Shown piece by piece: positions 13,259-23,375 of a stretch of DNA of 32,000 nt (position 1 is its first letter; each line of letters begins with the position of its first letter). The notes under the pieces are model-generated. The model saw only the letters and a program-made list of their open reading frames with translations, ran no database searches and was not told the origin of the DNA. The stretch spans positions 1,470,834 through 1,502,833 of the forward strand of contig NZ_JAXHCI010000002.1 in NCBI RefSeq assembly GCF_042466455.1, written 5' to 3'. Made by a program: the position numbers and the translations under genes. Source of the stretch: Loktanella sp. R86503. GTDB taxonomy: Bacteria > Pseudomonadota > Alphaproteobacteria > Rhodobacterales > Rhodobacteraceae.

Positions 13259-14332
13259 TCACTCTTCCGCGTCCGGGTCGATCAAGCTGATGGTGCCGTC
13301 GTCGGCCAGGGCGCGGATGGCGGTGCTGACCGCATTCATCGCGGCTTCACCGTCGACCGTTTTGGGTGTGCCGCGTTCGGCGGCTTCTTCTTTCATGCTG
13401 GCGGCCATACGCTGCGAAATGCAGTCGAGGATGAAATTTGCCGCTTCTTCCCTTTTGCCGCCGGTGCCGAGGGCAAAGGCCATGGCCGTCGCCAGATCGC
13501 CTGAATCAATGGCGCGGATGCAGTTGGGCATGTGAATTGGACGCACGCGGGCGGGAATGTCTTCAAAGGTAAAGATGGCTTTGCGCACATCCTTTGCGAA
13601 ATCGGCGTCGGATTCGTCAAGGCCCACCAGAACATCATCGCGGGTCAGCGCCGGGCTGGAGTTCAGGATGGCCCCAACCCGTTCGACAGGTGCCTTTTCA
13701 AAAGCGGTCAGGCGGGTGCGGCAATAGTCAGATACCAGCGCCTGCCCGATCCGTAGGACGGCATCGGGGGCTATGTCCGCCGTCTGGCGCACGGCAAAAG
13801 TAATGCGCCGGGCGCGTTCACCGGGCAATTTGCCCAGCACTTCCGCCGCGCGGGCGACAGGCAGTTTGGATAGCAGCACCGCACCGATCTGGATGCTTTC
13901 GTTTGACAGGATCTTGACCACTTCGTCAGTGGTCAGGTTTTGCAGCCGGATGAAAGGGTCGCGTCCTGTGCGATTATCCATCTGGTCGCGCAGTTTGTCG
14001 GCCAGATGCGGCGAAATTTGGCCAGATAACGCTTCGAGTGCGGCATCAACGTTGCCGGGGGCAGACAGGCCGATGGCATCCAGCAAATCGGCAAATTCGG
14101 TGGCCACTGCGTTGACCGTGTCCCGGTCAACCAGCCGGATCGCACCAAGTTCACGTGCTAGGTCTTCCTGCACATGATCGGGCATGGATGATAGGGCCAG
14201 TTTGTTGCCATCGCTGATCAGCAATTGCACGATCAGCGCCGCCTTGCGTTTACGTGACAAACGCAGCGTGCCGGATGCGCCGGGCGCACCCGCGGGTGCA
14301 GAATCAGAAAGGGGATGAAGGGCATTGAGCAT
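13259..14332 (-). CDS. fliG: FliG-type flagellar rotor/motor switch protein homolog
   Basis: 357 aa with a three-domain FliG-like layout. The N domain is RKRKAALIVQLL...MPDHVQEDLARELG. The middle domain is NESIQIGAVLLSKLPVARAAEVLGKLP. The C domain is VRKAIFTFEDI...ISQRMAASMKEEAAERG. An AAGGTGG RBS precedes it. Confidence 0.8.
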   Translation of the reverse strand: MLNALHPLSDSAPAGAPGASGTLRLSRKRKAALIVQLLISDGNKLALSSMPDHVQEDLARELGAIRLVDRDTVNAVATEFADLLDAIGLSAPGNVDAALEALSGQISPHLADKLRDQMDNRTGRDPFIRLQNLTTDEVVKILSNESIQIGAVLLSKLPVARAAEVLGKLPGERARRITFAVRQTADIAPDAVLRIGQALVSDYCRTRLTAFEKAPVERVGAILNSSPALTRDDVLVGLDESDADFAKDVRKAIFTFEDIPARVRPIHMPNCIRAIDSGDLATAMAFALGTGGKREEAANFILDCISQRMAASMKEEAAERGTPKTVDGEAAMNAVSTAIRALADDGTISLIDPDAEE

Positions 14333-14376
14333 GGCCCCACCTTACCGGCAGAGCGGTCAACGAATGGTAAACGCCC

Positions 14377-14868
14377 TTAGCCTTTGGCGTAGTTCACCGA
14401 CATGCCGCGCAGCGCTTCGATGGCGTCCGGCGACAAATCTTCTATGGATTTGGTCGCGTTGTGCAGTTCGGTCAGCACGCCGGCCAAATCCTGAATTTCG
14501 CCGTCGGTAAATTCGCGGTCTGCCCGCGCAAAGCTGCCAAAGCTGCGGCTGCCATCGGTTTCAAGCGCACAAACAACGCCGTAGTTCAGCCCGTGCTGTG
14601 CGGCCCGTTGCATGACCCGCGACGGATCATCCGTCAGATCGGACCAGCGGCAGCTGCCGTCATTGTTAAAGCCCCAGGATACGGTCGGATCGGCCATCAC
14701 CAAAGCGTGCAGAGAATAATAGGTCGTCCAGGCCTTTGGATAGGCCTGAAGCAGAAAGGTCGGAGTCGTATAACGGATGTGAAAGGCCAAGGCGTAGCCT
14801 GCAGGCGCAAGGCCTGATGCATCTTCAAGCCGCTTCATCATCTGCGCGATGTCCGACATTTTCATCAT
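14377..14868 (-). CDS. LuxR-family autoinducer-binding-domain protein lacking the HTH DNA-binding domain
   Basis: It is paralogous block-by-block to the N-terminal domain of the LuxR at 14985-15593 (RWSDL/RWSDM; SRSFGSFARADREFTDGE / HRSFASFIRPDREFEDLE). It ends at LSPDAIEALRGMSVNYAKG*, just after the first HTH-domain helix. The start is ambiguous: ATG at 14868, 14865 or 14859, or GTG at 14922. Confidence 0.8.
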   Translation of the reverse strand: MMKMSDIAQMMKRLEDASGLAPAGYALAFHIRYTTPTFLLQAYPKAWTTYYSLHALVMADPTVSWGFNNDGSCRWSDLTDDPSRVMQRAAQHGLNYGVVCALETDGSRSFGSFARADREFTDGEIQDLAGVLTELHNATKSIEDLSPDAIEALRGMSVNYAKG

Positions 14869-14966
14869 CCTGTGGCCCGGTCTTTCAGTTTCATTTACAG
14901 TAAAAAGCTGATTTGCTTTCACTCTCGGGTGTCATACTATCCAAAAGTGTAATTCGCATCTCAACT

Positions 14967-14982
14967 ATAAGGCGACGTTAAC
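14967..14982. promoter_or_regulatory. Near-consensus CtrA-type box ATAA-N7-TTAAC in the divergent luxR / luxR(N-only) promoter region
   Basis: ATAAGGCGACGTTAAC has one mismatch to TTAA-N7-TTAAC. It lies 3 nt upstream of the luxR ATG and 45 nt upstream of the tracked minus-strand ORF start (14922). Confidence 0.25.
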
Positions 14983-14984
14983 TG

Positions 14985-15593
14985 ATGGTCCGACAGATGA
15001 CGCCTCAGGACGTTCAACGTGTTTCGCCATCCGGACACTACATCGCGCTCCGTATCGGTTTTGCCTTCCCGATGGAAGAGATCAACGCGCTGCCGACAGA
15101 ATGGGTTGACCACTATACTAAAAATCGTCTGATGCTGTTCGACCCCGTCATGCGATGGGCCTATGCCAACACCGGCTTCAGGCGCTGGTCGGATATGCGC
15201 GGCGATGATCCTCATGGTGTTTTGACCATGGCCTCTGCCTTTGGGTTGCGTTTCGGCCTGACGGTTGCCGTCTTTGATGAAAACCTAGAAGGCCACCGCT
15301 CGTTTGCAAGTTTTATTCGCCCCGACCGCGAGTTCGAGGATCTGGAAGCGCGGCTGCTGGTGGCGTTTCTGACCCGCCGCCACCATGAAATGCTGCCGCC
15401 CACCAATCTGACCAATGCCGAGCTGGAGGCTTTGGCTATGGTCAAAGATGGCAAGCGGCTCAAGCAGATTGCGTTCGATCTGGGCGTTACCGAAGGGGCG
15501 GTCAAGCAGCGGCTGAAAAACGCAAAGGTCAAGCTGGGGGCCAATACCAGCACGCAGGCCGCAACGATGGCGCGGCAATTCAAGCTGATCTGA
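14985..15593 (+). CDS. luxR: LuxR-family AHL-responsive transcriptional regulator
   Basis: 202 aa with an autoinducer-binding-type N domain. It has a C-terminal GerE/LuxR HTH (LTNAELEALAMVKDGKRLKQIAFDLGVTEGAVKQRLKNAKVKLG). It lies immediately upstream of luxI. Confidence 0.88.
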   Translation: MVRQMTPQDVQRVSPSGHYIALRIGFAFPMEEINALPTEWVDHYTKNRLMLFDPVMRWAYANTGFRRWSDMRGDDPHGVLTMASAFGLRFGLTVAVFDENLEGHRSFASFIRPDREFEDLEARLLVAFLTRRHHEMLPPTNLTNAELEALAMVKDGKRLKQIAFDLGVTEGAVKQRLKNAKVKLGANTSTQAATMARQFKLI

Positions 15594-15739: not shown

Positions 15740-16390
15740 ATGGAAAACATTACCTTCAATCTGGCGACCCTTCACCGGCACGGCACTGCGTTTTACGATT
15801 TCCTGCGCCTGCGCAAACGGTTTTTCGTCGACACGCTTGGTTGGAACATCCCCCATGATGACCAGGTCGAGATGGATCAATACGACAATCCCAACGCCTG
15901 GTATTCACTGGTCATGCGCGATGGTGCCGTCATCGGCGGCGCGCGTGCGATGGCGACAACGGCGACCTGGGGCAGCCACAGCTATATGCTGCGCGATGCG
16001 GTGCATGGAAAGCTGATCGACATACCGCCGCAGGTGCTGGGGCAAGATATCGTCAGCGCGCAGACGTGGGAATGCACCCGGCTTGTCATGTCGGAAAGGG
16101 TTGAAACGCAGGCGGATCGCAGCGTCTGCCTGACCATGATCGTGCAGGGGCTGATCAACGTCGCGGCCGATCAGGGGGCGACGCAGCTGATGTCACTGTC
16201 GCCGCTGGCCCTGATGCGGGCGCTGCGGCAGCTGGGGTTCGGTGCGCAGCGGATCGGTGCGCCCTATACCAATGACAATGATGGCCGGCGCTATGCGGTG
16301 CTGTCGATGCCGGTGATCCATGGCATTGCCGCCATCCCGCGCGATGCGCGCCGGGCGCAGGCGCAGCCCGTGCATGCGCCGATCCGTTAA
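15740..16390 (+). CDS. luxI: Acyl-homoserine-lactone synthase (LuxI family)
   Basis: 216 aa with LRLRKRFFVDTLGWNIP...EMDQYD...WECTRLVM, the LuxI-family N-terminal signature. An AAGGAG RBS is at 15726-15731. Confidence 0.9.
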   Translation: MENITFNLATLHRHGTAFYDFLRLRKRFFVDTLGWNIPHDDQVEMDQYDNPNAWYSLVMRDGAVIGGARAMATTATWGSHSYMLRDAVHGKLIDIPPQVLGQDIVSAQTWECTRLVMSERVETQADRSVCLTMIVQGLINVAADQGATQLMSLSPLALMRALRQLGFGAQRIGAPYTNDNDGRRYAVLSMPVIHGIAAIPRDARRAQAQPVHAPIR

Positions 16391-16450: not shown

Positions 16451-17758
16451 TCAGTCCTTGCCGAACACGCGGGCAAAGATCGTGTCGACATGCTTGGTGT
16501 GATAACCGATGTCGAACTTTTCCTCGATCTGTTCCGGCGTCAGGGCGGCGGTCACATCGGCGTCGGCCAGCAGCTCTGTTTTAAAGTCGGCCCCTTTTTC
16601 CCAAACCTTCATCGCGTTGCGCTGCACCAGCTTGTAGCTGTCCTCGCGGCTGACGCCGGCTTGGGTCAGGGCCAGAAGCACGCGCTGCGACATGACCAGA
16701 CCGCGGAACTTGTTCATGTTCGCCAGCATGGTTTCGGGATAGATCACCAGCTTTTCGATCAGGCCGGCCAGACGGTTCAGCGCGAAATCTAGGGTGACGG
16801 TGGTGTCTGGGCCGATGGTCCGCTCGACAGACGAATGCGAGATATCACGCTCGTGCCACAGGGTGACGTTTTCCAGCGCGGGGGTCACGGACATGCGCAC
16901 CAGACGGGCCAGACCGGTCAGGTTTTCAGTCAGCACCGGGTTACGCTTGTGCGGCATCGCGGACGATCCCTTTTGACCGGGGGAAAAGAACTCCTCGGCC
17001 TCAAGCACTTCGGTGCGCTGCATGTGGCGCACTTCGGTGGCGATGTTTTCCATCGAGGATGCGATCACACCCAGCGTGGCAAAGAACATTGCGTGACGAT
17101 CGCGCGGAATGACCTGCGTGCTGATCGGCTCTGGCGTCAGGCCCAGCTGCTTGCAGACTTGCTCTTCGACAGCCGGATCAATGTTGGCAAAGGTGCCGAC
17201 AGCGCCAGAGATTGCGCCGGTCGCGATTTCAGCGCGGGCGTTGACCAGACGGGCGCGGCCCCGGTCCATTTCGGCATAAAAGCGGGCAAAGGTCAGGCCC
17301 ATCGTCGTCGGTTCGGCATGGATACCGTGGCTGCGGCCGATACGGACGGTGTCCTTATGTTCATAGGCACGCTTTTTCAGGGCGGCCAGCACGCGGTCCA
17401 TATCGGCCAGCAGGATGTCGGCGGCGCGCACCAGCTGGACGTTGAACGTGGTGTCCAGCACATCAGAGGATGTCATGCCTTGGTGCACAAAGCGTGCCTC
17501 GTCTGCTCCGATATGTTCGGACAGGTGCGTCAGGAATGCGATGACGTCGTGCTTGGTGACGGCCTCGATTTCGTCGATGCGGGCGACGTCAAAGGTGACG
17601 TCTTTTGCCTTCCAGACGGCATCGGCATTTTCGCGCGGGATCACGCCCAGATCGGCCATGGCATCGCAGGCATGTGCCTCGATCTCGTACCAGATTTTGT
17701 ATTTCGTGGCCGGGTCCCAGATGGCAACCATTTCGGGACGGGAATAACGCGGGATCAT
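16451..17758 (-). CDS. purB: Adenylosuccinate lyase
   Basis: 435 aa starting MIPRYSRPEM...; it has the fumarate-lyase signature GSSAMPHKRNP. Confidence 0.95.
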   Translation of the reverse strand: MIPRYSRPEMVAIWDPATKYKIWYEIEAHACDAMADLGVIPRENADAVWKAKDVTFDVARIDEIEAVTKHDVIAFLTHLSEHIGADEARFVHQGMTSSDVLDTTFNVQLVRAADILLADMDRVLAALKKRAYEHKDTVRIGRSHGIHAEPTTMGLTFARFYAEMDRGRARLVNARAEIATGAISGAVGTFANIDPAVEEQVCKQLGLTPEPISTQVIPRDRHAMFFATLGVIASSMENIATEVRHMQRTEVLEAEEFFSPGQKGSSAMPHKRNPVLTENLTGLARLVRMSVTPALENVTLWHERDISHSSVERTIGPDTTVTLDFALNRLAGLIEKLVIYPETMLANMNKFRGLVMSQRVLLALTQAGVSREDSYKLVQRNAMKVWEKGADFKTELLADADVTAALTPEQIEEKFDIGYHTKHVDTIFARVFGKD

Positions 17759-23291: not shown

Positions 23292-23375
23292 GCGGGTGTG
23301 GCGGAATGGTAGACGCACCAGATTTAGGTTCTGGCGCCGCAAGGCGTGGAGGTTCGAGTCCTCTCACCCGCACCA
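23292..23375 (+). tRNA. tRNA-Leu (anticodon UAG)
   Basis: 84 nt folded by hand. Acceptor stem GCGGGTG/CACCCGC; anticodon stem CCAGA/TCTGG with loop TTTAGGT. It has a long variable arm (CGCCGCAAGGCGT), T-loop TTCGAGT and an encoded CCA. Confidence 0.93.

Follow-up and report, generated by a model that had tools for sequence, protein, structure and literature searches.

The stretch of DNA analysed here, 32 kb from Loktanella sp. R86503 and referred to below as the window, carries two divergent genes for LuxR-type proteins, only one of which encodes a complete regulator: the product of the minus-strand gene has a ligand-binding domain and ends before the HTH proper. Is this gene the truncated remnant of a duplicated luxR, or does it encode a receptor that is by nature devoid of a DNA-binding domain, and what could such a receptor do beside a full-length LuxR and a LuxI-type synthase of acyl-homoserine lactone (AHL)?

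The short protein and its full-length neighbour

The list of open reading frames (ORFs) of the window contains a minus-strand ORF at 14377..14922 that opens with a GTG. This start was rejected: no homologue reaches into the segment 14860..14922, and RefSeq takes a downstream ATG for the same protein (WP_386681336.1 of Loktanella sp. R86503, annotated at 160 aa). The homologues begin at M22 of the long ORF, almost all of them measure 159-166 aa and they share their end point. The start of the gene, hereafter the short gene, is the ATG at 14857-14859, with an AGGA upstream, and its product of 160 aa begins with MSDIAQ (Table 1). Since the short gene starts at this ATG, the spacer that separates it from the LuxR gene is 125 bp long (14860-14984), and not 62 bp as given in a preliminary description of the locus.

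Table 1. Coordinates of the genes and candidate elements discussed in the text (window positions)
Feature	Position	Strand	Remarks
fliG, flagellar motor switch protein	13259..14332	-	FliG_N, FliG_M, FliG_C; 44 nt downstream of the short gene
HTH-less LuxR-type receptor gene (short gene), classed as CerN-type	14377..14859	-	160 aa; stop TAA 14377-14379
Upstream stretch of the longest ORF (GTG start)	14860..14922	-	non-coding; 5' leader and promoter region of the short gene
Conserved box TAYACTTWWGGAYAGTA (minus-strand reading)	14935..14951		candidate LuxR (CerM/GtaR-like) operator
Sigma-70-like promoter candidate for the short gene	14936..14964	-	TTGAGA, 17 nt, GATAGT; consensus scan 9/12, weak pattern match
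Full-length LuxR, classed as CerM-type, divergent partner of the short gene	14985..15593	+	202 aa, or 198 aa from the ATG at 14997
AHL synthase, LuxI type	15740..16390	+	downstream of the LuxR gene, same strand; Pfam Autoind_synth, E 8e-15
purB, adenylosuccinate lyase	16451..17758	-	synteny marker of the D topology

Scanned against Pfam, the short protein matches Autoind_bind (E-value of 5.3e-14; 52 bits for a cutoff of 23) and, even at E<=1, shows no match to GerE, which bears out the first impression that this LuxR paralogue has kept its autoinducer-binding domain. All six residues of the AHL pocket, WYDPWG (W57, Y61, D70, P71, W85 and G113 in TraR numbering), are present. The AF2 model (pLDDT of 92) has the fold of a LuxR ligand-binding domain, and structural comparison ranks the corresponding domains of SdiA, RhlR, TraR, LasR, QscR and CviR highest, with a probability of 1.0 for the first three. 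The long helix at the C-terminal end of this domain (residues 119-136) is kept, and a helix at 144-152 precedes a short strand at 156-159. A ligand-binding domain and a linker are followed by the counterpart of the first GerE helix and by a brief conserved tail. The protein had been described as stopping inside the first helix of the HTH domain; it ends 8-10 residues past the equivalent of this helix, and it is the HTH proper that is missing. Without a GerE-type HTH, the short protein is not a canonical LuxR-type quorum-sensing transcription factor. It had also been argued that no HTH remnant could follow the stop codon, the next gene being only 44 nt away (14333-14376), and this held: a tblastn search, with the HTH of the neighbour LuxR or of CerM (see below) as query, turned up no other HTH remnant in the 32-kb window.

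The plus-strand gene (14985..15593) does encode a complete LuxR, as had been stated, with both Autoind_bind and GerE (residues 141-196). Its pocket also reads WYDPWG, and W57 is kept in 26 of 27 LuxRs of this neighbour type, that of the window among them. The alignment of the two proteins across the ligand domain, another of the initial observations, covers 143 residues with 35% identity and an E-value of 8e-30 and runs through LSPDAIEAL in the short protein and LTNAELEAL in the LuxR; this helix is the start of the neighbour's GerE match (residue 141). When the two families are aligned profile to profile, the register stays the same (lSpe..e.Lr.mSv against LT.AELEALrMV). Where the LuxR gene starts is ambiguous (14985-14997): the ORF gives 202 aa (MVRQMTPQ...), RefSeq takes the second ATG for a protein of 198 aa (WP_386681338.1), and both candidate start methionines are conserved among Loktanella orthologues. 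The product of the next gene (15740..16390) is named acyl-homoserine-lactone synthase in RefSeq.

Conservation and genomic setting of the short gene

Relatives of the short protein are numerous: a profile run against 1.84 billion cluster representatives returned 1260 of them at E<=0.001 and 177 at E<=1e-30, and among the best 150 matches, representatives of clusters at 50% identity, 83 are 150-185 aa long. The search with the single sequence gave about 90 clusters, 40-89% identical to the short protein and nearly all of about 160 aa. Once the window protein and CerN are added to the 83, Autoind_bind is found by Pfam scan in all 85 short members and GerE, or any other HTH domain, in none. The WYDPWG pocket is invariant in the 27 short-family members that were aligned, and most clusters of the single-sequence search display a similar conserved tail, ...LSPE...LRKMSV..THPGS or NYAKG. 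Among four Loktanella orthologues the dN/dS of the short gene ranges from 0.07 to 0.20, comparable to that of the neighbouring LuxR, i.e. the gene is under purifying selection. We rejected a strain-specific truncation, or a decaying pseudogene, on three grounds: length and end point are conserved across genera, dN/dS is low (the above 0.07-0.20) and no HTH remnant is left. The end point of the protein is a feature of the family, no accident of one strain, and the short form is an intact receptor, widely conserved across many genera, that has by nature no DNA-binding domain. A few family members exceed 160 aa, e.g. P0121 (246 aa) and P0235 (367 aa), and one long member has an extension of about 200 residues ahead of the short-type domain; P0121 and P0235 lie on short contigs and so may be either fusions or artefacts of gene calling.

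When one genome of each species was scanned, relatives were placed at 217 positions, the best 80 of which were analysed as loci. The short form is encoded at each of these 80 loci, which disposes of the suggestion that the orthologues could be full length and the window copy a strain-specific pseudogene. A gene for a LuxR of roughly 202 aa diverges upstream of the short gene in 80 cases out of 80, and in 75 luxI lies beyond it. Of the 77 loci with room for fliG, 65 have this gene after the short gene, on the same strand and at a median distance of about 38 nt, so that the fliG neighbour is also conserved in relatives; the other 12 are without it. A tblastn match to purB at more than 80% identity was obtained in 59 of the 80. 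In the window, the 44 nt that separate the short gene from fliG contain no terminator-like site, and the two genes are probably co-transcribed, judging from this layout. The FliG of the window scores 90 bits against the TIGR00207 model, far below its cutoff of 227, and is for this reason considered a divergent FliG. Pfam scans of 26 window ORFs revealed no flagellar gene other than this fliG, and a fliG placed apart from the other flagellar genes has also been reported for D. shibae. The remaining genes of the window are housekeeping ones (serS, secDF, ccmBC, acnA, an lpxL-like gene, glnA, glnB and tig); upstream of the gene for the trigger factor there is a tRNA gene (23292-23372; Rfam RF00005, 57.9 bits).

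Loci of this kind have long been known as the D topology. As defined in the section of the review by Cude & Buchan (2013, PMC3824088) that deals with topologies, fliG lies upstream, opposite to luxRI, and adenylosuccinate lyase downstream, and examples come from Loktanella, Octadecabacter, Oceanicola and Roseobacter sp. CCS2. The window locus matches this definition: purB, luxI, luxR, then the short gene and fliG. For each D locus the review tabulates the locus tag of a second luxR; its topology section treats the locus as luxRI plus neighbours, and neither there nor in the passages of the main text that contain the relevant terms is the missing DNA-binding domain of the second luxR mentioned (PMC3824088).

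A second divergent pair was found on a 598-kb plasmid of Loktanella salsilacus (L088; NZ_CP072993.1, 370282-371510), flanked by IS elements and phn genes. Its short protein has 162 aa and is 45% identical to that of the window; its LuxR has 204 aa and is 72% identical to the window LuxR. Neither luxI nor fliG was found beside this pair, and because it stands without them, we regard the short gene and the LuxR gene as the core unit.

Relation to CerN/CerM, TrlR and GtaR

An HTH-less LuxR-type protein of this kind is already known, and the precedent is CerN of Cereibacter sphaeroides rather than TrlR. CerN and CerM were described in 2024 in this single species (Hernandez-Valle et al., PMC11655674). 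Loss of cerN or cerI abolishes Fla2 motility and lowers CtrA, and deletion of cerM suppresses both defects; CerN is needed for motility and for ctrA expression. CerM occupies its sites without AHL, GST-CerN pulls down His-CerM only when AHL is there, and DNA binding by CerM is reduced only by CerN plus AHL, as seen both in EMSA and with a lacZ reporter in E. coli. The authors link the pocket substitution W57F of CerM to the behaviour of this protein, and it is they who likened CerN to TrlR (PMC11655674).

CerN was not among the best 120, nor among the best 150, matches of our protein searches. It was recovered by searching metagenome contigs for a 20-mer, the published cloning primer of cerN, which matched two long contigs. 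In the locus obtained in this way (L081), cerI, cerR and cerM are on one strand and cerN diverges on the other, and the termini of CerN, MVNVPSV... and ...ATLRH, agree with the primer predictions. Both CerN and the window short protein are 160 aa long; they are 39% identical (BLASTP E-value of 4e-36), and hhalign aligned the profile of the short family with CerN over 159 of 160 columns with a probability of 100. CerN has Autoind_bind only, the WYDPWG pocket and the same C-terminal end point as the short protein of the window. The divergent order of the genes is the same too, with a LuxR partner of roughly 195-202 aa, and CerM is 40% identical to the window LuxR (E-value of 6e-46). The differences concern the surroundings, the pocket of the partner and the evidence available. 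In C. sphaeroides, cerR-cerI adjoins the pair, the synthase is of a different type (the window LuxI is 31% identical to CerI and 34% to the LuxI of the rplQ-luxR-luxI loci discussed below), and neither fliG nor purB is a neighbour. CerM has W57F whereas the window LuxR keeps W57. Finally, it is in C. sphaeroides alone that function has been tested.

Class membership was assessed with HMMs of the short, neighbour and GtaR types built without any protein from C. sphaeroides. CerN scores 154.6 bits with the short family, 137.6 with the GtaR type and 104.2 with the neighbour type; CerM, for its part, scores 154.2 bits with the neighbour type, 120.3 with the GtaR type and 109.0 with the short family. 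A neighbour-joining tree (numpy implementation, with bootstrap) recovered the split between 'short forms plus CerN' and full-length forms with a bootstrap of 27%, a low support that leaves the tree indecisive, and the split 'neighbour LuxRs plus CerM' with 56%. When single sequences are compared by BLASTP, the window short protein and CerN each score higher with P0097, one of the two GtaR-type proteins included, than with one another. On the strength of its sequence the window pair is filed as CerN/CerM-type; a single origin of all short forms, CerN included, seems likely. The present analysis adds how broad the family is and how it is usually arranged, with LuxI and fliG, and it recognises the 'second luxR' of the D topology as CerN-type. 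In Rhodobacterales the unit formed by a DNA-blind AHL sensor and a full-length LuxR makes up a large and conserved family: relatives occupy 217 sites in the species-representative genomes, and no fewer than 83 of the 50%-identity clusters consist of short forms. In its usual form, with an AHL synthase of its own and fliG, this unit is the long-known but unstudied D topology. The label 'LuxR family transcriptional regulator' is misleading for the short proteins, because by their domain content they should be unable to bind DNA by themselves.

The comparison with TrlR of Agrobacterium tumefaciens, drawn at the outset, holds only in part. TrlR too has an AHL-binding domain without a DNA-binding domain and, as summarized in the CerN paper, it inactivates TraR by AHL-dependent heterodimerisation (PMC11655674). 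What remains of the likeness is a DNA-blind LuxR acting on its neighbour, for which CerN is the precedent. According to the same summary, TrlR is a frameshifted recent copy, 88% identical to TraR (PMC11655674), whereas the paralogues of the window are 35% identical and the short form belongs to an old conserved family under purifying selection; the short protein is no TrlR-like recent truncated copy. Moreover, the target of TrlR, TraR, is presented as requiring AHL for DNA binding.

Among full-length proteins, those nearest to the short protein are LuxRs of 203-207 aa, 43-47% identical to it over the ligand-binding domain, which sit in an rplQ-luxR-luxI-rarA context (L083-L087). For many of these LuxRs, though not for all, HTH-type matches are on record in Pfam (PF08281, PF13384). 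No short partner gene is called in the rplQ-luxR-luxI-rarA loci examined. In the review by Cude & Buchan, L17 figures among the neighbours of luxRI operons (PMC3824088), and because the L17 gene here matches that neighbour, we tentatively assign the rplQ-context LuxRs to the GtaR/LuxR1 type (R. capsulatus gtaRI, D. shibae luxR1I1), which is full length and has another genomic context. GtaR falls in one orthogroup with CerM and CerN (PMC11655674). The short protein is nearer to these GtaR-type LuxRs (43-47%) than to its own neighbour (35%). Such values suggest that the short form and the GtaR type either split from each other after the neighbour type had branched off, or have changed at a slower pace than the neighbour type. 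D. shibae LuxB was also considered as a relative; the plasmid matches at E<=1e-8 included none from Dinoroseobacter.

Possible modes of action and the intergenic spacer

The reading that we consider the probable one, with real reservations, is that of a co-receptor of the CerN type: once loaded with AHL, the short protein would bind the neighbour LuxR and change its DNA binding. In such a scheme the short protein would be a functional co-receptor for the AHL made by the adjacent LuxI, and it would associate in its AHL-bound state with the divergently encoded LuxR, which most likely would be released from operators that it occupies without signal. The consequences could extend to ctrA and to flagellar motility, if the experiments in C. 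sphaeroides are a guide. The pair may in addition autoregulate through the conserved box of the 125-bp spacer, and co-transcription of the short gene with fliG could tie the circuit to motility. On the side of the window protein and its family, the scheme starts from domain content, fold, pocket, end point, purifying selection, pairing with a LuxR and homology to CerN/CerM. The AHL-dependent hetero-association, the loss of DNA binding and the effect on ctrA and motility would carry over from C. sphaeroides by analogy. For Loktanella, Yoonia and Octadecabacter the scheme offers a hypothesis of how quorum sensing might reach motility.

Several points count against the co-receptor model. Identity to CerN is only 39%, and the split that joins the short forms is recovered in only 27% of bootstrap replicates; the spacer contains no canonical GtaR/CerM palindrome, and the locus of C. 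sphaeroides differs from that of the window. The main uncertainty concerns the direction of the effect on the LuxR. Because it keeps W57, unlike CerM with its W57F, the window LuxR may bind AHL itself and may then behave unlike CerM.

This last point is also what could speak for a dominant-negative anti-activator comparable to TrlR, which would form inactive heterodimers with the AHL-bound LuxR and so damp or delay the activation of luxI and other targets. A LuxR with the complete WYDPWG pocket, unlike CerM, could be a classical AHL-activated activator, the architecture of the short protein is that of TrlR (a ligand-binding domain and no DNA-binding domain), and the mechanism of TrlR, as summarized in PMC11655674, stands as a precedent. 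Yet the LuxR on which the homologue CerN acts needs no AHL for DNA binding, CerN itself is required for quorum-sensing output, and a protein 35% identical to its partner and anciently conserved is not what a derivative like TrlR, frameshifted and 88% identical to TraR, would lead one to expect. We regard the anti-activator as unlikely. The antiactivator or AHL sink of the preliminary description thus survives as regards hetero-association with the neighbour LuxR, for which CerN is the example, and not as regards the notion of a brake or sink, since CerN is an AHL-dependent relief switch.

A target other than DNA is a further possibility, to which we give a low probability: the short protein could be an AHL-sensing adaptor that makes the flagellar motor, or its assembly, respond directly to the AHL level, for instance via FliG. 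The linkage to fliG is indeed tight (fliG follows on the strand of the short gene in 65 of 77 loci, about 38 nt away at the median, with no terminator), the fliG of the window is isolated from other flagellar genes, and the conserved C-terminal tail (MSV..THP / NYAKG) is without an assigned role. Were this true, it would represent a post-transcriptional output of quorum sensing by a LuxR-type domain. But it is the partnership with a LuxR that is universal (80/80), while fliG is missing in 12 of the 77 loci that could accommodate it and next to both CerN and the L088 plasmid copy; no LuxR-FliG contact is in evidence, and co-transcription alone would explain the linkage as regulatory coupling.

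Even less probable, in our opinion, is a passive sink or buffer that sequesters the signal and sets a threshold with no protein partner. The pocket is intact and the gene adjoins that of the synthase; however, the plasmid pair of L. salsilacus exists without luxI, CerN binds CerM, and a sink would need neither the strict pairing with one type of LuxR nor the conserved C-terminal elements, i.e. the tail and what is left of the first GerE helix. As for a decaying remnant of a duplicated luxR, which has the missing HTH in its favour and nothing more, we give it practically no credence in view of the end point and length conserved across genera, the dN/dS of 0.07-0.20, the invariant pocket, the lack of an HTH remnant downstream and the phenotype attached to the homologue CerN.

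In the spacer, the box TAYACTTWWGGAYAGTA is the only long block conserved among five intergenic regions of the Loktanella clade, and it has a 9-nt core, TTTTGGATA, in common with BS1, a site experimentally bound by CerM (PMC11655674); its putative role as operator is a lead only. The -10 element of the sigma-70-like promoter candidate overlaps this box. The canonical 22-bp GtaR/CerM palindrome, RACMTGTCYWWWWRGACAKGTY, was discarded as a candidate, no match being found in the window within 3 mismatches.

Another motif emerged closer to the short gene in other loci. The 80 loci (about 1.9 Mb, both strands counted) contain 36 copies of GGCAAC-N4-6-AAGCGAG, every one of them just upstream of the short luxR, 10-13 nt from its ATG (loci L006-L080; e.g. 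L011:5960-5985). Rfam had no match for this conserved upstream motif. The GG-N10-GC spacing of the motif resembles that of a sigma-54 -24/-12 promoter and, should it be one, the transcript would start at or near the ATG of the short gene. The window holds a degenerate relic of this motif on the minus strand, at about 14886-14902.
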